Origin: a virus
Direction: 5' to 3' (one strand)
Length of the DNA stretch: 64,000 nt
Virus record (IMG/VR): IMGVR_UViG_3300028581_000020
Location: 1 to 64,000 of that record
Shown here piece by piece: positions 2,579 to 35,298 of the stretch. Every line of letters starts with the position of its first letter. Positions within the stretch are counted from its first letter, which is position 1. The notes beneath the pieces are model-generated. The model had not been told where the DNA came from. It worked only from the letters and a program-made list of their open reading frames with translations, and ran no database searches. A program made the translations under genes and the position numbers.

Positions 2579-3984
2579 TGCCTAATACAAACGCAATGAC
2601 AGATAAGGGAGCGGGACTTGATCCCGTTCCCGTCCCTTCCGAAATTGTGCCGAAAAGGGAGCGCACCCCTCCTGACCTTAAACTCGCCAAAGAGAATATG
2701 GCGTGGGCAACTTCGACGGTTCTCAATGCGTCGGGATTTGGCTTTTATGGCTATATTCTGCAAGGTATGCCAACTCGGTTTACAACGGGACTTCCCACCG
2801 CTGGCGTTGCGTTCGATCCCCGCACTAAGCAATTTAACTTGTATGTCAATCCTTATTTCTGGAATGAATCTCTAGACAAGCTTCAGCGCGTTGCGGTTCT
2901 TATCCATGAAATGCTGCACGTAACCCACAAGCATGTTTATTATAATCTAAAGGGTCATCAAGAAAAGGACCGACTTAACATTGCCATGGATATGGTGATT
3001 AATCAGCAAATTTTGCATATGCCGAAAGAAGCCATCTTTGTCGAGAACTTCAAAGACAAAACCGGCAAACTTTTCCCCAAGAATCAAACTGTAGAAGTTT
3101 ATTACGATCTTTTGGAAAATGACGCTCAAGTCTTTCAACGCTCTCAGAATGGTCAAGGCGAAGGGGAAGGGAAAGACAAGCAAGAAACTAGCGGCCAAGG
3201 AATCCCTGGAGATGTTGAGCACAACGGACAAAGGGGAAAATGGAAACGTCTTGGCGATCTAAAAAAGGAATTGGGCTGGGATCAACATGAATGGGGTCTT
3301 GACTCTCAGGACAATCAAAGCCTTAAAGAAAAGCTCGAAGGACTTCAGGACTTGTTTAAGCGTGCGGAACATAAGGCATCGTTTGACCACTCTATAGATA
3401 AAAACGCTTTTGAAGACTTCCTTAAAGAAATTAAGTCCCGCATTCAAAAACTTGACGCACGCGGCATTTTGCTTAACGCCTTAAGAAAGTCCATGCCTTC
3501 GAAGTTCGTTAAGAAATCTTGGTGGAGAGAATCTAGCCGTTATGGCGACGATGCTCCGGGAAGTCTCAGAGCCCCAATGCCCAAAATTGCTGTACTTGTT
3601 GACACTTCAGGCTCTATGAGCATCGAAGAAATTAACGAATTCTTTGCTGTAACGAATCAATTCATGACGGTAGGCATTGACAAAGCGTTCCTTGGACTTT
3701 TCCATACCGATATGTATTATGACACGATTGTCAAGAAAAACTTCCAGCTTGCCAAAACTAACATTCGGGATAAAGTACAAGGCGGCGGGACTGAATTGAC
3801 GACAGCCTTTGAATGGGCAAAGAAAAAGAATCCGGATATGATTATTGTATTGACAGACGGATATTGGTCTATGCCGAATATCAACGTTAAGAAGCTGCCT
3901 GAATGCTGTTTTGTCATCTCGAAACAAGGAACAACGGATCATCCCATGAAGGGTAGTGGACGAACGGTGAAATATGACCCGTGA
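2578..3984 (+). CDS. HExxH metallopeptidase-like plus vWA domain protein (DUF2201-type)
   Basis: LIHEMLHV, NIAMDMVIN, MIDAS DTSGS, GGGT, VLTDG. Confidence 0.85.
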   Translation: MPNTNAMTDKGAGLDPVPVPSEIVPKRERTPPDLKLAKENMAWATSTVLNASGFGFYGYILQGMPTRFTTGLPTAGVAFDPRTKQFNLYVNPYFWNESLDKLQRVAVLIHEMLHVTHKHVYYNLKGHQEKDRLNIAMDMVINQQILHMPKEAIFVENFKDKTGKLFPKNQTVEVYYDLLENDAQVFQRSQNGQGEGEGKDKQETSGQGIPGDVEHNGQRGKWKRLGDLKKELGWDQHEWGLDSQDNQSLKEKLEGLQDLFKRAEHKASFDHSIDKNAFEDFLKEIKSRIQKLDARGILLNALRKSMPSKFVKKSWWRESSRYGDDAPGSLRAPMPKIAVLVDTSGSMSIEEINEFFAVTNQFMTVGIDKAFLGLFHTDMYYDTIVKKNFQLAKTNIRDKVQGGGTELTTAFEWAKKKNPDMIIVLTDGYWSMPNINVKKLPECCFVISKQGTTDHPMKGSGRTVKYDP

Positions 3985-4186
3985 TAGGTATTTTCGATTT
4001 ACAAAAGGCCCAAATAGAGGTTCTATTGTATATAAATTAACCGCCGAAGGTTTGTATTATAAAAAAACTGATACCTTGGTCTGGAGAGAATCTGCGGCAT
4101 CGGTAGAACAAATGGAATCCACACTAATGACCGAAGTCACAAAAGAGTATGAAGTACAAAACGAAATTAAGGAGTTGCTTAAATGA
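3974..4186 (+). CDS. Small tagged protein
   Basis: Ends KEYEVQNEIKELLK*. Confidence 0.85.
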   Translation: MTRDRYFRFTKGPNRGSIVYKLTAEGLYYKKTDTLVWRESAASVEQMESTLMTEVTKEYEVQNEIKELLK

Positions 4187-4278
4187 TTAAGATTAAAGTC
4201 CTACAATTTCTTGGAGAAATTCTTAACAATGGAATTTTCTATGCAATGATCGCCATTGCTGTGAGGGTTTTTGTATGA
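4183..4278 (+). CDS. 31-aa hydrophobic peptide (not in ORF track)
   Basis: MIKIKVLQFLGEILNNGIFYAMIAIAVRVFV*, with ATGA overlaps at both ends. Confidence 0.6.
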   Translation: MIKIKVLQFLGEILNNGIFYAMIAIAVRVFV

Positions 4279-4490
4279 AAGTGCAATTTGATTTTGAATT
4301 GATTAATGGAAATACCGTCTATGTCACGGCAAAAAAGAAAGGCGAAGAGGAATTTGACTTGCGCCTTCAGGATGACAATGGGGTCGAAATCCCTTTGACG
4401 CAAATTGATGAAGACGAACTCGATTCTATGAAAGAAAAAGCCGAAGAAGAGATCTTCTTTAAGACGCAGGAATTGGATTTTAGGGATTAG
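4275..4490 (+). CDS. Small acidic hypothetical protein
   Basis: D/E-rich ORF, coupled. Confidence 0.7.
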   Translation: MKVQFDFELINGNTVYVTAKKKGEEEFDLRLQDDNGVEIPLTQIDEDELDSMKEKAEEEIFFKTQELDFRD

Positions 4491-4492
4491 AA

Positions 4493-4717
4493 ATGGACAT
4501 TGGCATTGTTGAAGGTGAATGGTATATGAACCGCGAGACAAAAAACTGCTATAAGGTACTGCATTGGCCTGGATTTTATAGCATGTCTTTCCCTGTATCC
4601 ACCGATGGCAAAAATATAATCACATATAAAACATCTCTTATAAGGAATTGGGTCCACCTTCCTAATTACGAAAAGACCTTGACAATACAATCGGAAGTTA
4701 ATAAGCTATTGGAATGA
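4493..4717 (+). CDS. Small tagged protein (HLPNY subtype)
   Basis: Ends HLPNYEKTLTIQSEVNKLLE*. Confidence 0.85.
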   Translation: MDIGIVEGEWYMNRETKNCYKVLHWPGFYSMSFPVSTDGKNIITYKTSLIRNWVHLPNYEKTLTIQSEVNKLLE

Positions 4718-4932
4718 GAGATATTGCGGTCTTTAAAGACATTGATAGAGAAAACCCCTGGACATGGGTGTATCAAAAAGGAGAACTTGTGGAGGTATTT
4801 TCAAATACAGACCGATATCCTGCCGATACTAAAATGTGGCCATATGATAAAATGCGGGAGTATTCGGGTTTTATTAAAGATATAACAAAAGAATATCTTA
4901 TTGACAAAGAACTGAAGGACCTATTAAAATGA
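4714..4932 (+). CDS. Small tagged protein
   Basis: Ends KEYLIDKELKDLLK*. Confidence 0.85.
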   Translation: MRDIAVFKDIDRENPWTWVYQKGELVEVFSNTDRYPADTKMWPYDKMREYSGFIKDITKEYLIDKELKDLLK

Positions 4933-5144
4933 AAGTACAAGCTGGGCAAGTCTGGCTTTGGAAAAGATTTGATCTTTCGGGAGTAAAATGTCGTATTCTA
5001 GAAATTAGAAATCAAACTACAGTTATTGAAAATTGCGAATTAAAAACTAAACACATAATTTTTACAAATTATCTTGCTGATAAATGTTGGGAACTATCAA
5101 AATCGTCTGAAATTAAAGACGAAATAGAGGATCTATTGGCATGA
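4929..5144 (+). CDS. Small tagged protein
   Basis: Ends KSSEIKDEIEDLLA*. Confidence 0.85.
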   Translation: MKVQAGQVWLWKRFDLSGVKCRILEIRNQTTVIENCELKTKHIIFTNYLADKCWELSKSSEIKDEIEDLLA

Positions 5145-5380
5145 AGTTCTATAAAGGAATGATTTTACGAGGAAAAGGCCCTTATAAACACCTCACGTTT
5201 AAATTGCTTAATATAGAAAAACAAACCTGGAGAGTTTTAGAGGACAATCGAGAATGCGGATCGAGAAACGGGAAAACTGAGGTTTATAGCGTCTCAGAAA
5301 TCGAATGGGGAGACAATCAATGGGAAGTTATTACAAAATCCTTCGAGACTAGTAAAGAATTGAAGGATATTCTAAAATGA
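5141..5380 (+). CDS. Small tagged protein (paralog of 28277)
   Basis: MKFYKGMIL... and ends KSFETSKELKDILK*. Confidence 0.85.
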   Translation: MKFYKGMILRGKGPYKHLTFKLLNIEKQTWRVLEDNRECGSRNGKTEVYSVSEIEWGDNQWEVITKSFETSKELKDILK

Positions 5381-5832
5381 ATCTTCCTAAAGCAATTTGT
5401 GTTGATATTGATGGCACAATCGCGAATATTGACCATCGTCTTCACCACGTCCGAAGAAAGCCAAAGAACTGGCCGGAATTCTTTAAGGAAATGTCAAAGG
5501 ATTCTGTAAACGAATGGTGTCAAAATTTAGTTTATTTGTATTTCAATGCCGGTTATAAGATTATCTTTGTATCCGGACGCGGCGAGGAATATCGCCGCGC
5601 AACAGAAACTTGGCTTGACGAAAAAGCACAAGTATATCATACTGCCTATGAGCTTTACATGCGTCCAGAAAAAGACTATAGGCAAGACGACATAATTAAG
5701 GAAGAAATCTACTTGACGAAAATCAAAGATAAGTATAATGTTGAAGTTGTAATTGATGATCGGCCACGGGTTTGTCGCAAATGGCGGGAGTTGGGACTTC
5801 TAGTCCTTCAATGCAATGACAAAGAATTTTAA
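5377..5832 (+). CDS. HAD-family phosphatase, like the Pnkp/PseT 3'-phosphatase domain
   Basis: DIDGT, VSGR, LYMR, IDDR motifs. Confidence 0.85.
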   Translation: MNLPKAICVDIDGTIANIDHRLHHVRRKPKNWPEFFKEMSKDSVNEWCQNLVYLYFNAGYKIIFVSGRGEEYRRATETWLDEKAQVYHTAYELYMRPEKDYRQDDIIKEEIYLTKIKDKYNVEVVIDDRPRVCRKWRELGLLVLQCNDKEF

Positions 5833-6013
5833 GTACTATCGAGAATCTTATGGTCACGTTTATAAATACGACGGCGATAATTTGATCGCCGTAAAGCCAA
5901 TGGGCAAAGAATGGAGAGATCCACATCTTCCATTAAATGTAGTGGACTATGATTGGGAAGATGTCACAAAAGAATACCAAATTCAACAAGAAGTCAAGGA
6001 TTTATTGAAATGA
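5816..6013 (+). CDS. Small tagged protein
   Basis: Ends KEYQIQQEVKDLLK*. Confidence 0.85.
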   Translation: MTKNFKYYRESYGHVYKYDGDNLIAVKPMGKEWRDPHLPLNVVDYDWEDVTKEYQIQQEVKDLLK

Positions 6014-6231
6014 ATTATCGCTATTTTTTATCTCTAGATCCTAATACTATCATTAGACGCCATTCGGATTTGTCGGGAATGGAAATGCGGCTATATCATG
6101 ACAAAAACGACGAATGGAGGCCTTCACAGTTAGATATTAAATACATAGAAGCTATGATAAGGTGCGGATCAATGAAAGACGCGACAAAAGAATTGGAAGT
6201 CCTTGACGAAATCAAGGATATTTTGTCATGA
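6010..6231 (+). CDS. Small tagged protein
   Basis: Start moved to the ATGA overlap. Ends KELEVLDEIKDILS*. Confidence 0.8.
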   Translation: MNYRYFLSLDPNTIIRRHSDLSGMEMRLYHDKNDEWRPSQLDIKYIEAMIRCGSMKDATKELEVLDEIKDILS

Positions 6232-6440
6232 AGCTGAAAGTTGGCGAATATTATAGGTCAATAGGCGCTCACTACGTATTTAGGGTTGATAGTTTCGATA
6301 GAAATCAAGATTATTTTGTTCAATTCGAAACAGATGGCAGATTCGAAAAATGGAAAGATGGTTTAAATGATTACGAACATCTTCCCAATTACAAAAAATC
6401 AATAGAAATAAAGGATGAACTCGATAAGCTTTTGGCTTGA
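6228..6440 (+). CDS. Small tagged protein (HLPNY subtype)
   Basis: MKLKVGEYY... and ends KSIEIKDELDKLLA*. Confidence 0.85.
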   Translation: MKLKVGEYYRSIGAHYVFRVDSFDRNQDYFVQFETDGRFEKWKDGLNDYEHLPNYKKSIEIKDELDKLLA

Positions 6441-6464
6441 CTCATTCAATAATAATGATACACT
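6437..6464 (+). promoter_or_regulatory. Sigma70-like promoter whose -35 overlaps a tag stop codon
   Basis: TTGACT-N16-TACACT with TGn. Confidence 0.55.
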
Positions 6465-6482
6465 TACTATGTGGAGGAAACT

Positions 6483-6740
6483 ATGAATACGAGAATTCGG
6501 TACTTTGACAATGACGGTGTTTTGGAATCTAGCGGAATGGATGGCGCAAACAATAAAGTGTTGCGTGTTCGGCTTAATGACAATAAATTCTCTGTATTAG
6601 ATCAAAATGACGAGATTTTGGCGGCAGGGGAAGCGAAAACCTCTACGTCCGCAAAAATCAAGGCCAAAGAGTCGCTTAAAAACTTTGGCGTTGTCTTTTC
6701 TGACGAAAAGCGTCAAAGAAAGTCTTCCGATCCCGTATGA
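6483..6740 (+). CDS. Hypothetical protein
   Basis: GGAGG SD before the ATG at 6483. Confidence 0.75.
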   Translation: MNTRIRYFDNDGVLESSGMDGANNKVLRVRLNDNKFSVLDQNDEILAAGEAKTSTSAKIKAKESLKNFGVVFSDEKRQRKSSDPV

Positions 6741-6970
6741 AGAAAGTCCGGCTTGGGCAGATTTTTAAGGCCAAAGAGGGATCTATATATTACGGCGCAA
6801 CTTGGAAATGCATTAATGTCAGAAATGGAAAATTCCAAGAGATGTCAAATCCTAAAGATTGTATCGAAGATCCAGTTCACAGCTTTATCAGAGATTGGGA
6901 AGAAAGCGATTGGATTGACGTGACGAAAGAATATGAAGTTAATGAAGAAGTTAAGGATTTGTTGAAATGA
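6737..6970 (+). CDS. Small tagged protein
   Basis: Ends KEYEVNEEVKDLLK*. Confidence 0.85.
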   Translation: MKKVRLGQIFKAKEGSIYYGATWKCINVRNGKFQEMSNPKDCIEDPVHSFIRDWEESDWIDVTKEYEVNEEVKDLLK

Positions 6971-7259: not shown

Positions 7260-7447
7260 TTGTAATGGTGTCGCTATTGTGGCTTTTGAGTGTTACCTGT
7301 GCTCTATATATTTGGGCGAAAAATTTTGATGAAATTCAATATATCGCACTATTTTGTGCGATTATTGGCGGCCCCGTAACGCTTCTAGTTTGGGGAATGA
7401 TGTTTCTAAATGGCAGGAACCACGTTGTCTGGAGACGGAAGAAATGA
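7253..7447 (+). CDS. Small 2-TM membrane protein
   Basis: Two hydrophobic segments and a basic C-terminus. Confidence 0.7.
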   Translation: MLIVMVSLLWLLSVTCALYIWAKNFDEIQYIALFCAIIGGPVTLLVWGMMFLNGRNHVVWRRKK

Positions 7448-7653
7448 TGCCTAAAGTCGGAGAAATTTGGAGATTTTGCAACTCTAAAAATTGGAGGATT
7501 CATAAAATTGACTCCAAATGGGCAACACTTGAATCTCCCGATACTGGCGAATTTGTCCAACAATACAACACTAGATATTTCGAAACTCCCGGCTTATGGA
7601 AACACACAAAACATTCTATTATTGACAAAGAAGTGAAAGATCTGCTATCCTAA
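7444..7653 (+). CDS. Small tagged protein
   Basis: Start at ATGA overlap (MMPKVGEIW). Ends KHSIIDKEVKDLLS*. Confidence 0.8.
   Translation: MMPKVGEIWRFCNSKNWRIHKIDSKWATLESPDTGEFVQQYNTRYFETPGLWKHTKHSIIDKEVKDLLS
7622..7651 (+). promoter_or_regulatory. Sigma70-like promoter inside tag-coding DNA
   Basis: TTGACA-N18-TATCCT with TGn. Next ATG at 7658 has no SD. Confidence 0.55.
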
Positions 7654-7657
7654 TCCC

Positions 7658-7933
7658 ATGACACTTATTCAATTCTTTATTGGTCTTTTTGTCTTTATAT
7701 TTGGATATTTGTATTTCCAATCTGTTCTTAAAGACCTTCGCAAAAACGTAATGCCTGGCGATGTTGTTGGTATTCGTTTTGGCGATTATGTCGTCAATAG
7801 AAAAATTCGTGCTATCTCCGGAACGACAGTTGATGTTTTAAGCCTCAAAGGCAATAATGTAATTACTGTTGACAAATCCAATATCTATGTTTGGGATAAA
7901 TTTGCCATTGAGGATGAGAAAATTGATGTCTGA
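7658..7933 (+). CDS. Single-TM protein with YajC-like architecture
   Basis: N-terminal TM, then PGDVV...IRAISGTTVDV...ITVDKSNI. Confidence 0.45.
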   Translation: MTLIQFFIGLFVFIFGYLYFQSVLKDLRKNVMPGDVVGIRFGDYVVNRKIRAISGTTVDVLSLKGNNVITVDKSNIYVWDKFAIEDEKIDV

Positions 7934-7988
7934 TTTGATTTATAAATTTGCAGAAATACAAAAAGAAGTAAAGGATTTACTATCATGA
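7926..7988 (+). CDS. 20-aa tag-only micropeptide (not in ORF track)
   Basis: MSDLIYKFAEIQKEVKDLLS*. ATGA overlap with nrdA. Confidence 0.7.
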   Translation: MSDLIYKFAEIQKEVKDLLS

Positions 7989-9712: not shown

Positions 9713-9787
9713 TTTCCCTATCAATATATTACTACCAGAATCAAATCTTTAGAAATATCCCAAGAATTACAGGACATATTGAAATGA
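9713..9787 (+). pseudogene. Orphan tag remnant in frame behind the nrdA stop
   Basis: FPYQYITTRIKSLEISQELQDILK*, with no ATG/GTG/TTG ahead of the tag. Confidence 0.65.
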
Positions 9788-10032
9788 AATATAAAGTTGG
9801 AGATGTTTTTTATGCAAAATGGCCAAAATATGGTCATGTTTGGAAAATTGAAGTAATTGGTAAAAGAGGAAGATCTAACGCCACGATAGTAGATCCCGCA
9901 AAAACTGATTGGAAGCTCGGTGAAACTATTAAAAATTCCAACGCTAAACTATTTTCTATCGACGAAGGGTGGATTCATATCCCAGCTAAAGAATTTGACG
10001 TTTTAGACGAAGTGAAAGATCTTCTCGCGTGA
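9784..10032 (+). CDS. Small tagged protein
   Basis: MKYKVGDVF... and ends KEFDVLDEVKDLLA*. Confidence 0.85.
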   Translation: MKYKVGDVFYAKWPKYGHVWKIEVIGKRGRSNATIVDPAKTDWKLGETIKNSNAKLFSIDEGWIHIPAKEFDVLDEVKDLLA

Positions 10033-10280
10033 TTTTAAAACGTGGCCATGTTGAAGTTGGTCGGACGTATAAATATGTCGGCTCTCGTTATGGTTTTGAT
10101 ACGGTCGAAGTGACGAGAATACTATTAAAAGACGATATTGTCGGAAATTATAAATACGGGGAAGTAATTTGGCGAGATTTGTCGCTAAGCTTTTATGATC
10201 CCCTAGATGATTTAAAAGATCTTGTTGACATCACAAAAGAGATTGAGGTAAACTCTGAGGTGAAGGATTTATTGAAGTGA
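10029..10280 (+). CDS. Small tagged protein (paralog of 25822)
   Basis: Ends KEIEVNSEVKDLLK*. Confidence 0.85.
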   Translation: MILKRGHVEVGRTYKYVGSRYGFDTVEVTRILLKDDIVGNYKYGEVIWRDLSLSFYDPLDDLKDLVDITKEIEVNSEVKDLLK

Positions 10281-10531
10281 CTAAACCCGAAATTGGAAGA
10301 TTATATCAATGGCAACCAGACGTAAGAAATACAGCAGACATTGCCAAAGAAAATAAAGACAGAGTATTCAAATTCACTAAAGTCGGACCAAAACTATGGG
10401 CATATGAGTATTTAGATGAAAACTATTCTTTTGAATACGATATGGAAGATTATCCAGATAGATTTGATTATTTAATTGACGTGACAAAAGAAATTGAAAT
10501 ACAAGACGAAGTGAAAGAGCTACTTAAATGA
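10277..10531 (+). CDS. Small tagged protein
   Basis: Ends KEIEIQDEVKELLK*. Confidence 0.85.
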   Translation: MTKPEIGRLYQWQPDVRNTADIAKENKDRVFKFTKVGPKLWAYEYLDENYSFEYDMEDYPDRFDYLIDVTKEIEIQDEVKELLK

Positions 10532-25825: not shown

Positions 25826-26082
25826 AGCAAAGAAAGCACATAGTAGTTGGTGGAAGGTATTTAAACACGGGTATCTTCGATGATGGTTATTTTTTTCATC
25901 ATGTCGAAGTTGAAGGGTTTTCTGGTAATGTCATCATTGGTAAATATTATTACGGTGATTCATTAAAGAATTCTTCATTTACAAACGTAACGCACTTAGA
26001 CTTTAATGATGAAGATCTTGATGCTCTCGTTTCCATGAAAGCTTTAGAAATTGATATTGAAGTGAAGGATCTTCTAAAATGA
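25822..26082 (+). CDS. Small tagged protein
   Basis: Ends KALEIDIEVKDLLK*. Confidence 0.85.
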   Translation: MKQRKHIVVGGRYLNTGIFDDGYFFHHVEVEGFSGNVIIGKYYYGDSLKNSSFTNVTHLDFNDEDLDALVSMKALEIDIEVKDLLK

Positions 26083-27619: not shown

Positions 27620-28277
27620 TTTTAACTTGGTAAATTATGATACCGATAGTATTATGGTTTGTAAACCCGATGGATCGGCGTTTGATTCGGAAGAACAATC
27701 CCAACTTCTAATCGAGCTTAATTCTCTTTTCCCCAAAAGGATTAAATGGGAACCCGATGGGTATTTCCATACGGTAGCTATCATTAAAGCTAAAAACTAT
27801 ATCTTGTACGATGGAAAGAAGTTGAAAATCAAGGGAGCCGCATTAAAAGCAACAACAAAAGAACCTGCCCTACAAGAATATATTAAAGAAGTCATTGACT
27901 GTATTATTGAAGGTCGTTATAATCATAAAGAAGTCTATGATAAATACGCTAAAGAAATCATGTCGTTAACCGATATTAAACGCTGGGCGACGAGAAAGAC
28001 CTTGACTAATACTGTATTTGCTGGCGAGCAAACGACGGCAAAGAAAGTGCTTGACGCCATTGACGGAACTGAATATACTGAAGGAGATCGTGCTTATTTC
28101 TTCTTTAAGCCCGACGAATCGTTAGAACTAGTTGAAAACTTCACGGGAGAATATCATGTTGACAAACTTTTGGAAAAGCTGTTCAAAACTTCTTCAATTT
28201 TTCACACGGTCATTCCGAAAGACACCTTCCCAAACTACAAACTCAAACGAAATAAAATACTGTTATCCAGTTTATAA
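27606..28277 (+). CDS. Family B DNA polymerase, C-terminal part (motif C, thumb)
   Basis: NYDTDS, KAKNY, IKG. Has its own AAGGA SD. Confidence 0.85.
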   Translation: MSNHDFNLVNYDTDSIMVCKPDGSAFDSEEQSQLLIELNSLFPKRIKWEPDGYFHTVAIIKAKNYILYDGKKLKIKGAALKATTKEPALQEYIKEVIDCIIEGRYNHKEVYDKYAKEIMSLTDIKRWATRKTLTNTVFAGEQTTAKKVLDAIDGTEYTEGDRAYFFFKPDESLELVENFTGEYHVDKLLEKLFKTSSIFHTVIPKDTFPNYKLKRNKILLSSL

Positions 28278-28516
28278 TGATTTTCTATAAGGGAATGATT
28301 TTAAAAGGAATTAATAGCATGGAAGGATTAGTTTTTAAGTTATTAAATATTAGTTCTCATGAATGGGAGCTTATTCAATCAACACGTATTGGTCCATCAC
28401 ATAGACCATATATAGTTTCGTATCCTATATCCGACCGAGAGTGGCCCGAAACAGAATGGATTGATGTAACAAAAGAATATGAAGTTGCTGACGAAATTAA
28501 GGACCTCTTGAAATAG
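28277..28516 (+). CDS. Small tagged protein
   Basis: MIFYKGMIL... and ends KEYEVADEIKDLLK*. Confidence 0.85.
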   Translation: MIFYKGMILKGINSMEGLVFKLLNISSHEWELIQSTRIGPSHRPYIVSYPISDREWPETEWIDVTKEYEVADEIKDLLK

Positions 28517-28517: not shown

Positions 28518-29471
28518 ATGTTCCGAGACAATCTCCCAAAACCCGGCAATACAACAAAGATCAACGTCTTAATAACAGACGGCGGTCTTGGAGATCTTGC
28601 TTGTTCCCTCGTTCCCGTAAAATACATGCTCGATAATATGTTCTGGTTGAATCCTCAAATCTTTGTACCTGATTATTTATTTGACTTCGCAAAGAACGTC
28701 TTACCTTCAAAGGCAAAAATCTTCCGCTATTCCGAAGCCTCTCGTTATTATAAGGAAAAACTCCCGGCTGTATCCACGCAATGGAAAACCAACCATACGG
28801 CAATGCGTACACATCCGGTCGATTATGCATTCCACATGCTCCTTGACAAAACTCCAACGCCAGAGGAACGGAATTACCTCAAGGTGTCGCCGGTTGATAT
28901 TTCCGTTTTCAATCTCCCGACAAAATACGTCTGCATTGGAGTCGGACACACAAACCGCACTAAGGAATTCAAACCCGATGTTGTTAATGGAATTGTGACT
29001 TATTGTCTCTCCATGGGATACCTTCCCGTATTCCTTGGAAAAAAGGAAGAGCCCACAGGACATGAGAAACTCGGCTTAAAGGCTGAGATTTCTAATGACA
29101 TTGATTATACGAAAGGCCTTGATTTTACTGGGAAAACGACCATTTTGGAAGCCGCGAGTATTATCAACGGAGCGAAATGTTATATTGGAATGGACGGCGG
29201 ACTTGTTCATATCGCAGGATTTACAGATGTTCCGATCATCGCTGGTTATACGTTTGTGAACCCTAACCATATTATGCCTATTCGTAATGATATTCTAGGT
29301 CACAACGTACAAAATATAGTCCCGCCCCCATCATTAGGGTGTCGATTTTGTCAAACAAATTGGTCTATGTTTTATGACCATTCGTTCTTTGATTGTTATT
29401 ACGATGATTTTGAATGTGTTAAACAATTGACTCTTGACAAATGGATAGAAAAGCTGGAGAATGTATTATGA
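28518..29471 (+). CDS. GT9 (heptosyltransferase-like) glycosyltransferase
   Basis: GGLGD, DFTGKTTI, IGMDGGLVHIA, CRFC. Confidence 0.8.
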   Translation: MFRDNLPKPGNTTKINVLITDGGLGDLACSLVPVKYMLDNMFWLNPQIFVPDYLFDFAKNVLPSKAKIFRYSEASRYYKEKLPAVSTQWKTNHTAMRTHPVDYAFHMLLDKTPTPEERNYLKVSPVDISVFNLPTKYVCIGVGHTNRTKEFKPDVVNGIVTYCLSMGYLPVFLGKKEEPTGHEKLGLKAEISNDIDYTKGLDFTGKTTILEAASIINGAKCYIGMDGGLVHIAGFTDVPIIAGYTFVNPNHIMPIRNDILGHNVQNIVPPPSLGCRFCQTNWSMFYDHSFFDCYYDDFECVKQLTLDKWIEKLENVL

Positions 29472-29827
29472 TTGATTTTTTAAAAGGTATTTTTGGTATC
29501 TCTGCAAATAGTCAACAAATCCAGTCCTTACAATCGGGTGCTATTGCACGACAACAACTGGGCTCTCAAGGAACCAAAAGTAAGTTTTCTGTATATACGA
29601 CACCAGGTTCCGAAACATTCTTTCCATATTCACAAGGAAGTATTTATTATGATCCAGAACGTCTTTTGCCGCTTCATCAAAGAAAAAGGGTGTCTCTTCT
29701 AAAGCTTCAACGCCGAGCGGCAGAAGTCTCCTCTCTTATTACTGAAAAACAGGACGATCTTATTAAATTAAACGCTCGAATTAAAGAAATTTCTATTCAA
29801 GAAGAGCTTAAAGACCTATTGAAATGA
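29468..29827 (+). CDS. Tagged coiled-coil protein
   Basis: Ends KEISIQEELKDLLK*. Confidence 0.8.
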   Translation: MIDFLKGIFGISANSQQIQSLQSGAIARQQLGSQGTKSKFSVYTTPGSETFFPYSQGSIYYDPERLLPLHQRKRVSLLKLQRRAAEVSSLITEKQDDLIKLNARIKEISIQEELKDLLK

Positions 29828-30090
29828 CCTTCACAAAAGGACACGTTTATTACTCTAATTGTAATACCTATGGTATTGCGTGGGAATGTTTAGAATCAAC
29901 GATAGTCGCCCACGTACGGTGTCAGGCCGTAGAGTTTACTGGAAATGTTCCCGATCATATTACAGTTAGACTATTTGACCCACAGACAATCGTATTTGGC
30001 CTGCATACAGACCACATGAAAAATATTACGGAATACGCATCAAAAAAAGCCTGGGAAACTAGAAACGAAGTGAAAGATCTACTTGCTTGA
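29824..30090 (+). CDS. Small tagged protein
   Basis: Ends KAWETRNEVKDLLA*. Confidence 0.85.
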   Translation: MTFTKGHVYYSNCNTYGIAWECLESTIVAHVRCQAVEFTGNVPDHITVRLFDPQTIVFGLHTDHMKNITEYASKKAWETRNEVKDLLA

Positions 30091-30293
30091 AATTTAAACT
30101 TGGTGATCTTATTAGCCCTAAAAATATGTCGGTAGTCTATAAAGTAATGTCAATTGATCCTGTCATGAACAAAATAAAATTACTGACTCCAGATCTCAGA
30201 ATACTTACGCTTTATAATGATAATACAGAAGAACACTTTGAAATTGCTAAAGAACAAGTTGTTTCTGATGAAGTGAAGGATCTTTTAAAATGA
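30087..30293 (+). CDS. Small tagged protein
   Basis: MKFKLGDL... and ends KEQVVSDEVKDLLK*. Confidence 0.85.
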   Translation: MKFKLGDLISPKNMSVVYKVMSIDPVMNKIKLLTPDLRILTLYNDNTEEHFEIAKEQVVSDEVKDLLK

Positions 30294-30493
30294 TTGTAAA
30301 TTATAAAACATACGGACAATTGGTATCAGTATTCAAAGGAACATATGAAGCTCCATGGAAAACCGAGACAGACGTTTCCCGGCTTTTTGAATATAGAAAC
30401 ATGCCGGGGATGTCAACGGAAAATACCGAGTTCATTGACAAACGAATTAAGGAATTAGAAACGTCACAAGAAGTGAAGGAACTATTGAAGTGA
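30290..30493 (+). CDS. Small tagged protein (paralog of 30490)
   Basis: Ends KRIKELETSQEVKELLK*. Confidence 0.85.
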   Translation: MIVNYKTYGQLVSVFKGTYEAPWKTETDVSRLFEYRNMPGMSTENTEFIDKRIKELETSQEVKELLK

Positions 30494-30702
30494 GCATTAC
30501 TTATATGCTTAAGGCTACATACGGTAATCTTATAAATCTAATTCCGGAAGGCGTTTATTTATTCTCCATTGAAAGAGAAACCTCATTAGAAAAACTTAAT
30601 AATATGTTAACAAATGAACGCTCTGAAGATATTTTAGATCGCGTTCGTAAAAGAATCAAACACATTGAAACCCAACAAGAAGTGAAGGATTTACTCGCTT
30701 GA
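30490..30702 (+). CDS. Small tagged protein
   Basis: Ends KRIKHIETQQEVKDLLA*. Confidence 0.85.
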   Translation: MSITYMLKATYGNLINLIPEGVYLFSIERETSLEKLNNMLTNERSEDILDRVRKRIKHIETQQEVKDLLA

Positions 30703-31362: not shown

Positions 31363-32000
31363 GTAAAATCAAATGTATTCTCCCTTGTGCAGGACTTGGA
31401 ACGCGAATGGGAATGAAAAATAACGAAGCCAAAGAACTTCTATTAGATCCAACGTATCAAACTCCAATTATCGACTATTCGCTTAAGATCTGTAAAGATC
31501 AAGGATTTACGCCAGTTATCATCTCTCGCAAGGAAAAACGTGAATTTAATCGTTATGTCTCAGGAAAAGCTGAATTGCTTATTATTGAACCCCGAGGAGA
31601 ATGGATGGACTCTATACTACAATCGAAAGATTTGTGGGAAGAAAAAAACATCCTAATTCTCCCCGATACAAGATTTAGGCCTATTGACGAGGCTTCAAAG
31701 CTCGTTAAAGATCTGGATTTCTGTAATCTGTCCTTTGGTCTTCATTTTGTAAAAGATACACAAAACTGGGGCATTGTCAAGCAAATAGATATGAAAACTT
31801 ATGATGTCATTGAAAAGCCTAAAGACAACATCTTCTGTTCTACGGCTTGGGGAATCGTCGCTTTTAAGCCAGAACAAGGCGAACAACTATTCGAAGGCTT
31901 TCGGACAAAGAACCAATGGTTTAGGGTTGAAAACGCTTCTTGTGCTTATCTTCAAAGTTTTAAAGATATAACGAGAACCGGAAAGATCGAAGATGCTTAA
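31359..32000 (+). CDS. Sugar-phosphate nucleotidyltransferase-like protein
   Basis: ILPCAGLGTRM, KELL, LPD, EKP. Confidence 0.8.
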   Translation: MSKIKCILPCAGLGTRMGMKNNEAKELLLDPTYQTPIIDYSLKICKDQGFTPVIISRKEKREFNRYVSGKAELLIIEPRGEWMDSILQSKDLWEEKNILILPDTRFRPIDEASKLVKDLDFCNLSFGLHFVKDTQNWGIVKQIDMKTYDVIEKPKDNIFCSTAWGIVAFKPEQGEQLFEGFRTKNQWFRVENASCAYLQSFKDITRTGKIEDA

Positions 32001-32076
32001 AGTTGACGATACTGGGATTCCTTTTACATATATCGGAAATGAAGTTGAAAAAGAAGTCAAGGACTTGCTTAAGTAA
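31993..32076 (+). CDS. 27-aa tag micropeptide (not in ORF track)
   Basis: MLKVDDTGIPFTYIGNEVEKEVKDLLK*. TAATG overlap. Confidence 0.7.
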   Translation: MLKVDDTGIPFTYIGNEVEKEVKDLLK

Positions 32077-32432
32077 TGAAACTCAAATACTTCGATCTGG
32101 CAAGACAGCTCTCTGAGAAATCCGACCACCACACGTATAAAATTGGTTGCGTCATTGTTCGTAAAAATCGCATAATTGGAATGGGCTGTAATAAAATGAA
32201 AACCCATGTGGCTTCTCCACACAAATGGAAACATATTCACGCAGAATTTGATGCCATTCTTTCGACTCGAAATAAAGAGGACCTTGTTGGTGCGAGCGTT
32301 TATGTATTCCGCGCAAGGAAAGACGGAACGAACGCCATTTCAAAACCGTGTCCATCTTGTAAAAATATGTTGCAATCTGTAGGTGTCTCTGATATCTTCT
32401 ATACAGAGGACGGTGGATATGGGAAAATTTAA
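32076..32432 (+). CDS. Zn-dependent cytidine/dCMP deaminase family protein
   Basis: HAE and PCPSC motifs. Confidence 0.85.
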   Translation: MKLKYFDLARQLSEKSDHHTYKIGCVIVRKNRIIGMGCNKMKTHVASPHKWKHIHAEFDAILSTRNKEDLVGASVYVFRARKDGTNAISKPCPSCKNMLQSVGVSDIFYTEDGGYGKI

Positions 32433-32637
32433 AATAGGGCAATTGATTGAGAGTTCTGCGCATCCCGGTAATATTACTCTAGATAAAATAATTACGGACA
32501 TTAAAGAAGAAATTTATATTTGTAAAAATGTAGTAAATGGTGCTCAATTGTACCTTCCTTTTAGTTTTGTCGATAACCGTTACACTTTACATAAATCTTG
32601 CCAAATTGAAGAAGAAGTGAAGGATTTATTGAAATGA
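32419..32637 (+). CDS. Small tagged protein
   Basis: MGKFKIGQL... and ends KSCQIEEEVKDLLK*. Confidence 0.85.
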   Translation: MGKFKIGQLIESSAHPGNITLDKIITDIKEEIYICKNVVNGAQLYLPFSFVDNRYTLHKSCQIEEEVKDLLK

Positions 32638-32858
32638 GCTTTAGAGTGGAAATTGGGATGGTATTTCGAGTTCCGCAAGGACTCCAAAGCAGCGGTCCCT
32701 GGCACTTCGAATACCTAGGCAACGGTAACTTTAAAAATCTAGAAATTAATAAAATTATTAGCTATGATCCAGACCATTCTTTGTGGGAATCTTATTATGT
32801 TCCAAACTATAAAAAAACTAAGGAGATTAAAGATGAAATTTCTACTCTTCTGTCTTAG
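32634..32858 (+). CDS. Small tagged protein (PNY subtype)
   Basis: Ends VPNYKKTKEIKDEISTLLS*. Confidence 0.8.
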   Translation: MSFRVEIGMVFRVPQGLQSSGPWHFEYLGNGNFKNLEINKIISYDPDHSLWESYYVPNYKKTKEIKDEISTLLS

Positions 32859-33257: not shown

Positions 33258-33509
33258 ATGATGCAAGTTATTACCGTATATAACGGAACGGTTCTAAAAA
33301 ATAAAAATACCGGGACGAAGTGGACCTTTGTTATTGAACCTAATGAGATGTATTGGCTTCGGAATGGGACACATAAATATCCAGTAAACAGCGATGAAGT
33401 TACAAAACGTGAAAATTCCGATCAATACGAGGCGTCAATTCCTGATTTTTTTATCGACATTACAAAAAGCAATGAAATTGAAAAAGAAGTGAAAGACTTG
33501 TTGTCTTGA
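33258..33509 (+). CDS. Small tagged protein
   Basis: Ends KSNEIEKEVKDLLS*. Confidence 0.85.
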   Translation: MMQVITVYNGTVLKNKNTGTKWTFVIEPNEMYWLRNGTHKYPVNSDEVTKRENSDQYEASIPDFFIDITKSNEIEKEVKDLLS

Positions 33510-33718
33510 AATCAGCGGATAAAATTGTAGCGGTCAACGATTCCAAAGGTATAACGTATTATGCCTTTAATTTTGACAGTCAAATGTATTGTGCTTATTT
33601 TATGGACTCTGTAAATTTCTATTCCTTTCATAGCGGCTGGCTTCCTATAAATGACGAGGCCCGGAGAATTCTTAAACAACACGAAGTTAATGCTGAGATC
33701 AAGAGTCTATTAAAATGA
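33506..33718 (+). CDS. Small tagged protein
   Basis: Ends KQHEVNAEIKSLLK*. Confidence 0.85.
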   Translation: MKSADKIVAVNDSKGITYYAFNFDSQMYCAYFMDSVNFYSFHSGWLPINDEARRILKQHEVNAEIKSLLK

Positions 33719-33963
33719 AATTTAAAGTCGGTGAATACTACGAAATAACCGAAGACATGCAGGGACACGCAGTATGCCACAAACGCGGCTCGGTTTTTAA
33801 AGTTATGGAATCAACTTCAGAAATTGATAGATTCGTAATCAGATTTATTGATGGAGAAAAAACAACCGGGCCTTGGTATGACGGAATGTCTTGCTATAAG
33901 CACCGCCCAGAACTAAAAAAGGGCGACCAAGTAAAAGAAGAACTTGACAATCTACTAGCGTGA
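33715..33963 (+). CDS. Small tagged protein (paralog of 6228)
   Basis: MKFKVGEYY... and ends KGDQVKEELDNLLA*. Confidence 0.85.
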   Translation: MKFKVGEYYEITEDMQGHAVCHKRGSVFKVMESTSEIDRFVIRFIDGEKTTGPWYDGMSCYKHRPELKKGDQVKEELDNLLA

Positions 33964-33972
33964 TGATAATAT
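33944..33972 (+). promoter_or_regulatory. Sigma70-like promoter starting inside tag-coding DNA
   Basis: TTGACA-N17-TAATAT with TGn. ATG at 33981 has no SD. Confidence 0.6.
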
Positions 33973-33980
33973 AGTTCTAT

Positions 33981-35045
33981 ATGAAATTAGCATTTGATGA
34001 CGTTCTTATTAGTCCCGGATTTTCCCATATCAACTCCCGTAAAGACGTTGACCTTTCCTCCAACCTCGGAAGCTTGGGATTGAAACTCCCAGTAATCTCG
34101 GCTCCGATGGATACTGTAACGGGACCTGCGATGGCAAACGCCCTATCCAAGGTTGGCGCTGCCGCAGCCCTTCATCGCTTTCAAAGTATTGATGATAATT
34201 TGAAGCAGTTTAAAGCTTGTGAAGGAAAAGTCATTGTTTCTGTAGGCTTGAACGATTGGGAACGAACCAGCGCTCTTTATGATGCTGGTGCTGAATATTT
34301 CCTATTAGACATTGCTCATGGAGCGCAAATGCAGGTTGTAGATTGGGTATCTGCCTTTCGGCAGAAGTATTCTGGAGTATGGCTAATGGTTGGGAATTTT
34401 GCTAATGCGAATCAAATCCACACATTTATGACACATACAAATAAAGTAGATAGTTGGAGGATAGGAGTGGGCTCAGGATCGAGTTGCGAAACAAGAGTTA
34501 AGACCGGATGTGGTTTGCCGACTCTTTCAAGCCTTCTCTCCATCAAAGATTATAATTCATCAAATTGGAAGCATCAAATCGAGAATATTGTTGCTGATGG
34601 CGGAATTAAGAATCCTGGGGACGTTGCAAAGTCCTTGGCCGCAGGAGCTTCTGCTGTAATGGTCGGAAAACTTCTTGCTGGAACTGATGAAAGTCCTGGT
34701 GAAATTACAGAAGTCGGAGGATGGTTTGCTCGACCTGATAAATACGCCGTCGAGAAAGAAACCCGAGTTGACGGCATTAAAGTGAAACAATATAGAGGCT
34801 CGGCTTCCGCCGAAAGCTATAAAGATCAAGGAAAAATCCAAGGCTATATTACGACAGAAGGAGTGTCCTTCACAATTCCGTATAAAGGCCCAGTATCTTC
34901 TGTGTTAACCGACATTGAAGGTGGCCTTCGTTCTGCCCTCACCTACGCGGGCGTTTCGAACCTGAAGGATTTTAGACAGTCTGCTGAGCTTGTACAGATT
35001 ACGAATGCCGGAGCTTTAGAAAGCAAAGCACATGGCAAAATTTGA
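33981..35045 (+). CDS. guaB: IMP dehydrogenase / GMP reductase family protein, no CBS domains
   Basis: FDDVL, SAPMDTV, DIAHG, GVGSGSSCETR, ADGGI, YRGSAS. IMPDH versus GMPR is not resolved. Confidence 0.8.
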   Translation: MKLAFDDVLISPGFSHINSRKDVDLSSNLGSLGLKLPVISAPMDTVTGPAMANALSKVGAAAALHRFQSIDDNLKQFKACEGKVIVSVGLNDWERTSALYDAGAEYFLLDIAHGAQMQVVDWVSAFRQKYSGVWLMVGNFANANQIHTFMTHTNKVDSWRIGVGSGSSCETRVKTGCGLPTLSSLLSIKDYNSSNWKHQIENIVADGGIKNPGDVAKSLAAGASAVMVGKLLAGTDESPGEITEVGGWFARPDKYAVEKETRVDGIKVKQYRGSASAESYKDQGKIQGYITTEGVSFTIPYKGPVSSVLTDIEGGLRSALTYAGVSNLKDFRQSAELVQITNAGALESKAHGKI

Positions 35046-35298
35046 GGTAGGACAGCAATATAGGTTTTCTCCAAAAGGAGTTTATAATCTCACGTTTGAA
35101 GTTTTATCTAAAACTGATGATGGTAGTTATAAATGTATTACGTTGACATTTGAAGCTACTGGAGCGACGCCTACGCCGACTGAAATAGCCGTTCCCGGAA
35201 AAACCTGGACATTTACACCGACTTCTTATATTGAAGAAATTTCAACATCACTAAAAGCCGAAGAAGTAATGGCAGAAATAAAAGAGCTTCTGTCATGA
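35032..35298 (+). CDS. Small tagged protein (last member)
   Basis: MAKFEVGQQY... and ends KAEEVMAEIKELLS*. Confidence 0.85.
   Translation: MAKFEVGQQYRFSPKGVYNLTFEVLSKTDDGSYKCITLTFEATGATPTPTEIAVPGKTWTFTPTSYIEEISTSLKAEEVMAEIKELLS

Follow-up and report, generated by a model that had tools for sequence, protein, structure and literature searches.

Small early proteins ending in one conserved tail in an uncultured lake phage

About a third of the early genes of an uncultured lake phage (IMG/VR record IMGVR_UViG_3300028581_000020; the window analysed is the 64,000-nucleotide stretch at positions 1 to 64,000 of that record) encode small, mutually unlike proteins that all end in the same short predicted helix. 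The design is shared by related phages that also carry a MoxR/vWA-peptidase gene pair. The observation of the earlier note, which described a library of small, aromatic-rich domains in front of a constant tag with dispersed paralog pairs, is confirmed, whereas its interpretation, that these are SH3/KOW-like barrels diversified as binding modules and spread by duplication and tag-homology recombination, is only partly supported.

Constant tail and orphan bodies

Thirty-nine ORFs on the + strand within positions 1-35,298 end in one 15-residue tail (K-x3-[IV]-x2-E-[VIL]-K-D-L-L-x-stop), in every case directly before a stop codon, and the rest of the 104.5-kb contig has none (Table 1). The tail is selected as a peptide: all six leucine codons are used at the two invariant leucine positions, V/I(-6) uses 11 different codons, and tag DNA is on average only 58% identical between copies. 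In this genome (G000), however, part of the tag also encodes the Shine-Dalgarno sequence of the next gene, AAG being used 22 times and AAA 11 times at K(-5), against 38 AAG and 167 AAA in the bodies, such that K-D spells AAGGA about 9 nt before the next ATG; some of the conservation at K-D is therefore at the RNA level. Charged positions (K-14, E-7, K-5, D-4) are as conserved as the hydrophobic ones.

The bodies in front of the tail are orphans. BLAST among them finds only pairs, and they are unrelated also by HMM comparison. Among 36 members there are no PHROGs hits and one real Pfam hit, a profile search of 1.84 billion representative proteins returned only genes of this genome plus one chance hit, and two members searched singly had no homologs.

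Two linker subtypes preceding the tag, as the earlier note proposed, do recur: D[VI]TKE is exact in 6 members, with 4 near variants, and HLPNYxK is exact in 3 (of which one is a pseudogene), with 3 near variants. The HLPNY type goes with a tag sub-variant (E-L-D-K-L-L-A rather than E-V-K-D-L-L-K). The member list was corrected to include one decayed member (12738-12950), two tag-only mini-ORFs, and five larger members of 119-162 aa.

Table 1. Tagged members and adjacent candidate partner genes (window coordinates)
Position	Strand	Feature
64..489	+	Tagged member, larger (141 aa from the ATG at 64; frame open to the contig start); DUF6745 domain plus tag ...SEVKDLLK
1433..2578	+	MoxR-type AAA+ ATPase (AAA_5), at the head of the densest tagged array; candidate partner
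2578..3984	+	DUF2201 protein: N-terminal HExxH metallopeptidase plus vWA domain with DxSxS (MIDAS) motif; candidate partner
3974..4186	+	Tagged member, 70 aa (EVTKEY linker)
4493..4717	+	Tagged member, 74 aa (HLPNYEK linker, tag variant EVNKLLE)
4714..4932	+	Tagged member, 72 aa (DITKEY); weak pair with 33258
4929..5144	+	Tagged member, 71 aa, N-motif MKVQAGQVW
5141..5380	+	Tagged member, 79 aa; paralog of 28277
5816..6013	+	Tagged member, 65 aa (DVTKEY)
6010..6231	+	Tagged member, 73 aa from the ATG that overlaps the previous stop
6228..6440	+	Tagged member, 70 aa, N-motif MKLKVGEYY, HLPNYKK linker; paralog of 33715; AF2 model of 5 strands plus a helix (low confidence)
6737..6970	+	Tagged member, 77 aa, N-motif; paralog of 32634
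7444..7653	+	Tagged member, 69 aa, MMPKVGEIW
7887..7988	+	Tag-only mini-ORF (33 aa); stop overlaps the RNR large-subunit start
9784..10032	+	Tagged member, 82 aa, MKYKVGDVF; own model in the ESM Atlas (pTM 0.71, pLDDT 0.78)
10029..10280	+	Tagged member, 83 aa (GTG start); weak paralog of 25822
10277..10531	+	Tagged member, 84 aa (GTG start); strain variant with paired 1-nt deletions at 10474/10485
12738..12950	+	Decayed member: 70 codons with an in-frame TAG at 12834-12836, HLPNYKK linker, tag ELKKLLE
12957..13196	+	Tagged member, 79 aa
14145..14375	+	Tagged member, 76 aa
14372..14653	+	Tagged member, 93 aa, MKFQVGDIC
14942..15382	+	Tagged member, larger (146 aa), tag variant ELGELLS
16485..16712	+	Tagged member, 75 aa
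16709..17197	+	Tagged member, larger (162 aa), no Pfam family
18276..18515	+	Tagged member, 79 aa (HKDW); paralog of 19553
19553..19795	+	Tagged member, 80 aa; paralog of 18276
25466..25825	+	Tagged member, 119 aa, two hydrophobic (membrane-span-like) segments; tag EVKGLLK
25822..26082	+	Tagged member, 86 aa; weak paralog of 10029
28277..28516	+	Tagged member, 79 aa; paralog of 5141; AF2 model of 4 strands plus a helix (low confidence)
29441..29827	+	Tagged member, larger (128 aa)
29824..30090	+	Tagged member, 88 aa
30087..30293	+	Tagged member, 68 aa (TTG start), MKFKLGDLI
30290..30493	+	Tagged member, 67 aa; weak pair with 30490
30490..30702	+	Tagged member, 70 aa (GTG start)
31993..32076	+	Tag-only mini-ORF (27 aa), between the nucleotidyltransferase and dCMP deaminase genes
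32419..32637	+	Tagged member, 72 aa, MGKFKIGQLI
32634..32858	+	Tagged member, 74 aa (YVPNYKK linker, tag EISTLLS); paralog of 6737
33258..33509	+	Tagged member, 83 aa (DITKSN)
33506..33718	+	Tagged member, 70 aa (TTG start)
33715..33963	+	Tagged member, 82 aa, MKFKVGEYY; paralog of 6228; tag ELDNLLA
35032..35298	+	Last tagged member, 88 aa, MAKFEVGQQY

A shared body type and paralog pairs

About half of the bodies share an N-terminal K-V-G-[DEQ]-x-aromatic motif. The strict form, [FLVYIKMR]-x-[VILKAF]-G-[DEQ]-x-[YFWIVLC] within the first 18 residues, occurs in 11 of 38 tagged proteins against 0 of 116 untagged ORFs of the same genome, with shuffled bodies giving a mean of 0.33 and a maximum of 3; a looser form occurs in 20/38 tagged against 2/42 small untagged ORFs. 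A second shared strand, hydrophobic-[YFW]-[KR]-[IV]-x-x-[IV], is visible in an alignment of the bodies. A leave-one-out profile test recovered members at ranks 1, 1, 1, 2, 2, 5, 6, 6, 9, 13 and so on (median about 6) of about 1,240, and the association of motif with tag is replicated independently in another genome (G004C41), in 7/28 tagged against 1/87 untagged ORFs. As to size and composition, 31 of 38 members are 65-93 aa, and the bodies are 14.4% F+W+Y, compared to 9.4% in small untagged ORFs and 8.9% in all untagged ORFs.

With the tags removed, all five paralog pairs of the earlier note scored above 500 shuffles in local alignment: 5141/28277 (z=24), 6228/33715 (z=9.0), 18276/19553 (z=8.7), 10029/25822 (z=4.8) and 30290/30490 (z=4.6), no shuffle reaching the observed score for any of them, although the last two are weak by BLAST (E=0.007 and not listed). 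Two further pairs were found, 6737/32634 (z=9.4) and 4714/33258 (z=5.2). Thus, the variable-plus-constant design, spread by duplication, and a shared body type for about half of the members are all supported.

Predicted fold and strain-level variation

An SH3/KOW fold could not be shown. AF2 models of two members (6228 and 28277) are of low confidence (pLDDT 54.5 and 56.5) and place 4-5 strands before a terminal helix of only about 9-10 residues; no fold search gave a match above noise, and the ESM Atlas gave only weak leads.

The term hypervariable, used in the earlier note, is not supported at strain level, where 20 members are letter-identical on 8-10 contigs and four other lake samples show no structural change, and no gene gain or loss, over 20 kb. 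Recombination through tag homology is likewise unsupported, the longest exact run shared between tags being 18 nt, and mostly 5-8 nt; the apparent joints at tags in the lake samples are cross-mapping of paralogous tags.

Related phages and the MoxR/vWA pair

A new finding is that at least seven related phage records carry the same design, each lineage with its own version of the tail (records and contigs are denoted by G and L numbers): N-x-[IV]-[ED]-x-[VL]-L-K in G001; F-D-K-D-[MI]-K-[DE]-L-L-x in the L047 contig (at least 25 ORFs); E-D-L-K-E-L-L-K in L028/L030; N-L-x-K-L-L-[YF]-x-G-E in the L048 contig (at least 30); and S-P-L-W-K-V-[LM]-N in L039. All nine tag-bearing records fall in one PolB clade of 25 rows (support 95/92), and none of the 8 rows in the sister clade has a tag. 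Gene counts differ between genomes in otherwise syntenic slots.

The MoxR and peptidase-vWA pair lies inside the arrays in 6 of 6 searchable tagged genomes (G000, G001, L012, L019, the L047 contig and the L048 contig) and is absent from 8 of 8 untagged records, of which two are 100% and two 88% complete, but four are under 60% complete. This co-occurrence rests on few genomes that are related to each other, only three untagged genomes having been scanned for tags over their whole length, and the L048 MoxR and vWA homologs are distant (23-25% identity). The HExxH and DxSxS motifs are invariant in four of these phages.

Possible function of the helix

The favored explanation, considered about as likely as not, is that of a clade-specific multigene family of small early phage proteins, growing and shrinking by gene birth and death, in which a small globular body precedes a conserved C-terminal amphipathic helix with a hydrophobic-x-x-L-L core. 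The analysis establishes that the helix is kept by selection on the peptide in every copy while the bodies have diverged beyond recognition; that about half of the bodies belong to one old body type, predicted at low confidence to be all-beta; that the same helix also sits on unrelated architectures (a DUF6745 domain at E=5e-15, a protein with two hydrophobic segments, larger proteins, and the differently patterned bodies of G001); that related phages share the design; and that the family expanded by duplication, filling the gaps between conserved replication and nucleotide-metabolism genes. It is only inferred, in the absence of binding data, that the helix is a common handle by which one partner grips all these unlike proteins, the leading candidate being the phage's own MoxR AAA+ ATPase and metallopeptidase-vWA pair, which might remodel the tagged proteins, deliver them or cleave them; the anti-defence or host-takeover role suggested in the earlier note is likewise conjecture. 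vWA domains have been proposed to capture a peptide of a client that MoxR then releases (PMC7159879). The coexistence of two tag sub-variants in G000 fits descent by duplication as well as it fits a common reader.

A less likely possibility is that there is no separate tag function, all members having descended from one small domain of which the C-terminal helix is simply the most constrained structural element while the rest evolves very fast. The N-terminal motif and the helix travel together in G000, the L048 contig, L039 and L028, as expected for one ancestral full-length domain, the paralog pairs show duplication, two tag sub-variants coexist, and the low-confidence models place the pre-helix linker as a strand of the body. 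On the other hand, the helix is found on the unrelated architectures above, the tag-only ORFs keep a perfect tag, and conservation of charged positions equal to that of hydrophobic ones is unusual for a purely structural helix when no other core position survives.

It is doubtful, but possible, that the handle is read by a host protein instead, as a degron for a host protease or a docking motif for a host hub, with the versions of the helix following different hosts. The genes lie in the early region, the tag is at the extreme C-terminus in G000, G001, the L047 contig and L028, and its sequence is lineage-specific; however, in the L048 contig and L039 the helix is followed by 1-9 further residues, indicating that an adjacent free C-terminus is not required, and the phyletic link to MoxR/vWA would then be coincidental. 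As for the hosts, only contigs binned into MAGs were found.

Pairing or bundling of members with themselves or with each other through the helix, like a short coiled coil giving mixed assemblies of different bodies, is unlikely on present evidence: the conserved hydrophobic positions (-10, -6, -3, -2) fall on one face of a helix by simple geometry, but the modelled helix is short for a stable coiled coil. The least likely explanation, that the tail is a by-product of a built-in Shine-Dalgarno and an NTGA stop/start overlap for translational coupling, draws on the 4-nt overlap with the next start in 29/33 tagged against 17/62 untagged small genes of G000 and on the AAG preference, but is already largely refuted by the synonymous-codon data, and survives only as an overlay specific to G000; in the L048 contig the helix is conserved without enrichment of overlaps (6/21 against 28/94) and is not at the very end.

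Comparison with other systems

SH3-like/KOW small beta-barrels are common among small phage proteins, and the N-terminal K-V-G-D-x-hydrophobic strand followed by a hydrophobic-aromatic-K-I strand resembles their usual start, and the models give 4-5 strands, but there is no Pfam match, no structural match above noise and no confident model, and the extra C-terminal helix is not part of the classical fold.

The same two-gene architecture, MoxR next to a vWA protein with an N-terminal metallopeptidase, occurs in group 2.2 jumbo phages (Iyer et al. 2021, PMC7824862), for which virion assembly and processing of structural proteins were proposed, without mention of arrays of tagged small proteins. 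The phages considered here are 38-105 kb, not jumbo, and the pair sits in the early/replication region among the tagged genes.

In peptide-processing systems coupled to vWA-MoxR systems (Kaur, Burroughs, Iyer, Aravind 2020, PMC7159879), a zincin-type (HExxH) metallopeptidase is linked to a vWA-MoxR pair, and small, rapidly diverging 'FxSxx-COOH'-type precursors have the C-terminal peptide as their conserved part. Those are bacterial conflict systems with one or a few precursors, four other motif types (FxSxx, RxD, acidic, FtsH-associated) and further components (VMAP, FtsH, AP-ATPase, radical SAM), whereas here the system is in a phage, the peptidase is fused to the vWA protein, there are 39 tagged genes, the tail is a hydrophobic-x-x-L-L helix, and cleavage is only a possibility.

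The internal proteins of T4 also join a constant short peptide, the capsid-targeting sequence, to diverse, fast-evolving small phage proteins, some of which act against host defence, but in T4 the constant part is N-terminal, is cut off by the prohead protease and sends the protein into the capsid; here it is C-terminal, sits on about 39 early-region genes, and nothing links it to the capsid.

A last comparison is with CbbQ-CbbO and NorQ-NorD (PMC4660213). In these remodellers a MoxR ring works with a vWA adaptor whose metal site grips an acidic residue of one dedicated client (Rubisco, nitric oxide reductase), with no peptidase domain and no family of tagged clients; the tag of the lake phage has an invariant Glu at -7 and Asp/Glu at -4.

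Gene content and the shared C-terminal tail

The window is the first 64 kb of a single 104,527-bp virus contig that occurs in lake-water metagenomes (no RNA run was listed among the sequencing runs). Positions 1-37 kb form a + strand chain of replication and nucleotide-metabolism genes, encoding a MoxR AAA+ ATPase, a DUF2201 metallopeptidase-vWA protein, both RNR subunits, an RNA ligase with an intein, ThyX, a PD-(D/E)XK nuclease, ERF, a DnaB-like helicase, a split family-B polymerase and a GMP reductase, with small genes packed between them. Thirty-nine ORFs, all on the + strand and all within 1-35,298, end in the same tail, K-x3-[IV]-x2-E-[VIL]-K-D-L-L-x-stop, which never occurs inside a protein, on the other strand, or in the remaining 69 kb. 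One of these (12738-12950), which has an in-frame TAG, had been missed in the earlier note, and two others are mini-ORFs of 33 and 27 aa that are little more than the tail. The reading frame of the first tagged protein is open to the first base of the contig, so its true start is unknown.

Features of the phage window and of related contigs that are discussed individually
Sequence	Position	Feature	Detail
Window	64-140	Start of the first tagged protein	Short repeat (S-E-V-W-S-E-V-W-S-E-V-G-S-K-V-W-S-K-V)
Window	1433-2578	MoxR AAA+ ATPase	AAA_5
Window	2578-3984	DUF2201 metallopeptidase-vWA protein	DUF2201_N at E=3e-10
Window	6228-6440	Tagged member	AF2 model with five strands plus a terminal helix, pLDDT 54.5
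Window	7253-7447	Small membrane-protein ORF	Contains the 42-base piece 7298-7340
Window	9784-10032	Tagged member	Own model in the ESM Atlas, pTM 0.71, pLDDT 0.78
Window	10277-10531	Tagged member	1-nt deletions at 10474 and 10485 in some strains
Window	10528-12738	RNA ligase gene	Interrupted by an intein with a LAGLIDADG endonuclease (Pfam Intein_splicing, LAGLIDADG_2)
Window	12738-12950	Tagged member	In-frame TAG
Window	22129-22668 and 23503-25437	ERF recombinase and DnaB-like helicase	Acidic tails with a Trp near the end (...ESESEWS, ...SKAQWD)
Window	26111-27619 and 27606-28277	Family-B DNA polymerase	Split into two ORFs
Window	28277-28516	Tagged member	AF2 model with four strands plus a helix, pLDDT 56.5
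Window	30087-30293	Tagged member
Window	62001-64000	GC-rich segment	GC content 0.51
L001 (relative)	9965-11491 and 11745-12419	Family-B DNA polymerase	Split into two ORFs
L019 (relative)	2334-14073	Array of tiny ORFs	About 27 back-to-back ORFs of 44-67 aa

The tag is a peptide and not a DNA element: its two invariant Leu positions use all six Leu codons, position -6 uses eleven different codons, and tag DNA averages 58% identity between copies. There is an RNA-level overlay in this genome, because the codon at K(-5) is AAG 22 times and AAA 11 times, against 38 AAG and 167 AAA in the bodies, so that K-D spells AAGGA about nine bases before the next start, and in 29 of 33 tagged genes the stop overlaps the next start by four bases, against 17 of 62 untagged small genes. 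In a relative (the L048 contig) the helix is conserved without any such enrichment (6/21 against 28/94) and is followed by extra residues. Coupling is therefore not the reason for the helix.

Bodies of the tagged proteins

What the earlier note had observed in the bodies in front of the tag was confirmed. The strict form of the N-terminal motif occurs in 11/38 tagged proteins and 0/116 untagged ORFs, whereas shuffled bodies give 0.33 on average; a looser form occurs in 20/38 against 2/42. A second strand, hydrophobic-[YFW]-[KR]-[IV]-x-x-[IV], follows in about 15 members. The bodies are aromatic-rich, as claimed (14.4% against about 9%), and all five of the claimed paralog pairs beat 500 shuffles (z = 24, 9.0, 8.7, 4.8 and 4.6), as do two further pairs, 6737/32634 and 4714/33258. 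The two proposed linker types exist, and the HLPNY type goes with a tag sub-variant, E-L-D-K-L-L-A.

Beyond these pairs the bodies are unrelated by BLAST or jackhmmer. Among 36 members there are no PHROGs hits and only one real Pfam hit, DUF6745 on the 141-aa member. A profile search of 1.84 billion representative proteins returned only this genome's own genes plus one chance hit (P0025, a 335-aa acidic repeat protein), two members searched singly in 5.8 billion proteins found only themselves, and searches of viral and metagenome contigs with member 6228-6440 found nothing. In a leave-one-out profile test on bodies alone, the held-out member ranked 1, 1, 1, 2, 2, 5, 6, 6, 9, 13, 19, 30, 64, 67 and 338 among about 1,240 sequences, a weak but real family signal for about two-thirds of the N-motif class. 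Chou-Fasman propensities and hydrophobic periodicity did not separate body classes.

The interpretation offered in the earlier note, of SH3/KOW-like barrels diversified in a variable-plus-constant design and spread by duplication and tag-homology recombination, is only partly supported. The variable-plus-constant design and spread by duplication are supported, but hypervariability and tag-homology recombination are not, and the fold is undecided. Only tiny alignments were available to AF2, so both of its models are of low confidence; in that of 28277-28516 the D-V-T-K-E-Y-E-V linker is modelled as a strand. Foldseek against PDB gave a best E of 0.55, and a wide VIA-align search gave best Z of 4.5 and 5.1, below the noise level of 7-8 for that method; the sub-threshold rows, which included PWWP, Sm-like and ribosomal KOW proteins, are not counted here. 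None of 36 members matched a Pfam family of the SH3-like/KOW clan at E<=0.01, which does not exclude the fold, and the body profile against PDB sequences gave a best E of 0.014 to strands of an intein, which is only a generic strand pattern. The ESM Atlas holds a model of member 9784-10032 itself, so at least that body is predicted to fold, but its nearest structures (TM about 0.5-0.57) are not SH3-labelled. For member 30087-30293, the nearest named feature clusters include DfrB (PF06442), which has an SH3-like barrel, but at a score of 0.83, which is only a lead. A small, probably beta-rich domain plus a terminal helix is as far as the evidence goes.

Conservation among strains

The tagged genes are not hypervariable among strains, and there is no sign of tag-mediated recombination. 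Twenty members are present letter for letter on 8-10 independent, near-identical contigs (one of them 124 kb), with at most single-residue variants. Contigs from four other lake samples cover 3974-23973 at 99% identity or more with no structural change, the only differences being one SNP and, in runs X9 and X12, a pair of 1-nt deletions 11 bases apart in member 10277-10531, just upstream of its tag, which together form a compensated frameshift that rewrites about four residues of the linker. The apparent joints at 6013/14341 and the loose ends at 5977, 6013 and 14378 in this comparison have flanks identical to the window's own sequence next to the tags at 32637 and 33509; they are paralogous tags cross-mapped at the 80% threshold, and not recombinants. 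Tags share at most 18 identical bases, usually 5-8, which is poor substrate for homologous recombination. In three runs, contigs match only the 42-base piece at 7298-7340 and continue with unrelated sequence on both sides, so a short element may be shared with other DNA in the lake samples. A scan for contigs of binned genomes gave only contigs in MAGs labelled Methanobacterium and Flavobacteriaceae, which are not taken as evidence of the host.

Tagged arrays in related phages

No phage in GenBank is close. By PolB, the nearest viral and metagenome contigs (numbered here with the prefix L, and genome records with the prefix G, G000 being the phage under study) are 44-61% identical, and several of them carry the same design with their own version of the tail. 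G001 (84.5 kb, 97% complete) has about 22 proteins ending N-x-[IV]-[ED]-x-[VL]-L-K; the L047 contig (38 kb) has at least 25 ending F-D-K-D-[MI]-K-[DE]-L-L-x; L028/L030 have E-D-L-K-E-L-L-K; the L048 contig (88 kb) has at least 30 ending N-L-x-K-L-L-[YF]-x-G-E; and L039 has about 10 ending S-P-L-W-K-V-[LM]-N. L012 (L-x-E-[VA]-F-x-[DE]-[DE]) and L019 (tiny MKL...[YIL]-L ORFs) have less clear variants; in L019, nearly all of the tiny ORFs start M-K-L and end [YIL]-L-stop, with 4-nt overlaps, a different, denser kind of mini-gene array around its MoxR/vWA pair. The core hydrophobic-x-x-[LV]-L is common to all the clear cases, and the minor sub-variant of G000 resembles the G001/L048 type.

The N-motif body travels with the tail in the L048 contig (7/28 tagged against 1/87 untagged), L039, L028 and partly the L047 contig (3/26 against 1/47), but not in G001 (0/21), whose bodies show a different sequence pattern. 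On a PolB tree, all nine tag-bearing records fall in one clade of 25 rows (support 95/92), and none of the eight rows in the sister clade has a tag. Complete untagged genomes (G007 and G010) show no excess of shared C-termini. In the untagged relative G006 (the record of L011), 13 small or mid-sized ORFs have tails rich in K, N, G and E (...KKNGE, ...KENGEQT, ...RNKNG; L057-L060), but this is probably low-complexity sequence and not a helix tag.

Core gene order is broadly conserved, but the number of tagged genes in each gap differs: between DnaB and PolB, for example, there are 2, 0, 1 and 4 in four genomes. Cross-genome BLAST of bodies gave only weak hits (E 0.003-0.05), too weak to compare orthologous bodies carrying genome-specific tags, and no strong body orthologs exist between genomes. 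So gene content is fixed among strains and almost completely replaced among relatives at 45-60% PolB identity. The family-B DNA polymerase is split into two ORFs in L001, L012, L019 and L047 as well, with a tagged small gene between the halves in L001, whereas in L003, L013, L039 and L048 it is one ORF of about 710-820 aa. The acidic, Trp-containing ends of the ERF recombinase and the DnaB-like helicase are matched by the same kind of tail ([DE]-x-W-x-stop) on their homologs in relatives (L001, L012, L013 and L019), which may be a second, separate shared C-terminal motif for a replisome partner.

Co-occurrence with a MoxR/peptidase-vWA gene pair

The adjacent MoxR plus peptidase-vWA pair lies inside the tagged arrays in G000, G001, L012, L019, the L047 contig (where a tagged gene sits between the two) and the L048 contig (a distant pair, 23-25% identity), a set that leaves out L039 and L028/L030. 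It was not found in eight untagged records (G002, 88% complete; G003, 71%; G006, 88%; G007, 100%; G008, 33%; G009, 55%; G010, 100%; and G011, 47%). These genomes are few and related to each other, half of the negatives are incomplete, and only G006, G007 and G010 were scanned for tags over their whole length. HExxH and DxSxS are invariant in four of the phages. A single complex prediction of the peptidase-vWA protein with a tagged member, scoring 0.01 without controls, counts neither for nor against binding.

Comparison with described systems

Kaur et al. 2020 (PMC7159879) propose that vWA domains capture a peptide of a client that MoxR then releases, and also describe bacterial peptide-processing systems, coupled to vWA-MoxR systems, with a zincin peptidase plus small, rapidly diverging precursors whose C-terminal peptide is the conserved part. 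The phage system shares a zincin-like metallopeptidase gene in the neighbourhood, a linked vWA-MoxR pair, and small, rapidly diverging proteins with a conserved C-terminal peptide. It differs in motif type, the tail being none of the described FxSxx, RxD, acidic-run or FtsH-associated types, in copy number (39 against one or a few), in having the peptidase fused to the vWA protein, and in being in a phage; no third component (VMAP, iSTAND or FtsH) and no AP-ATPase or radical-SAM partner was seen among the 20 larger ORFs of 1-37 kb scanned with Pfam, in which VMAP may not be represented. It is therefore considered to work like these systems rather than to be one of them.

Iyer et al. 2021 (PMC7824862) describe the same pair, MoxR next to a vWA protein with an N-terminal metallopeptidase, in group 2.2 jumbo phages, propose a role in virion assembly, and mention no tagged arrays. 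The present contig, at 104.5 kb, and the records of its relatives, at 38-96 kb (some rated 97-100% complete), are below the 200 kb of a jumbo phage. In T4-type internal proteins with a capsid-targeting sequence, the constant peptide is N-terminal and is removed by the prohead protease; here the constant part is C-terminal, and the N-termini are diverse or carry the K-V-G-D body motif. Literature searches found no description of such tagged arrays in phages.

Possible roles of the tail

The best explanation is a clade-specific family in which a peptide-selected C-terminal helix serves as a common handle, with the phage MoxR/peptidase-vWA pair as the leading candidate for its reader. The architecture is well supported, whereas the handle and its binding by a reader are inferred, and cleavage of the tagged proteins is only a possibility; the handle reading is about as likely as not, and the identity of the reader is no more than tentative. 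A more far-reaching form of this reading, less likely than not, is that the tagged small proteins are clients of the phage's own MoxR/metallopeptidase-vWA machine, the hydrophobic-x-x-L-L helix being an address label that the vWA-peptidase would capture so that dozens of unlike early proteins are remodelled, activated or removed together, with each phage lineage keeping its own matching version of the label. This would be a phage-encoded client-tagging system, and would give a function to the widespread but unexplained MoxR/vWA ("CobS/CobT-like") genes of large phages. If instead the tail is only the conserved core of one fast-evolving domain, the arrays are still a large lineage-specific gene family, but an ordinary one.

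Most small early phage genes are orphans with no handle for study, but here about 39 of them in one phage, and well over 100 across relatives, share one short peptide that selection clearly maintains, and co-occur with a MoxR/peptidase-vWA pair whose role in phages is unknown. If the tail is a common handle, one pull-down with a 15-residue peptide could identify its reader, and tail deletion or swapping would give a general way to switch a whole class of early proteins off or on. It would also link phage MoxR/vWA pairs to the bacterial peptidase systems that have small, variable precursors with conserved C-terminal peptides.

The contig itself may be composite or chimeric, since GC content jumps at 62001-64000 from the value of about 0.40 found in the rest of the window.
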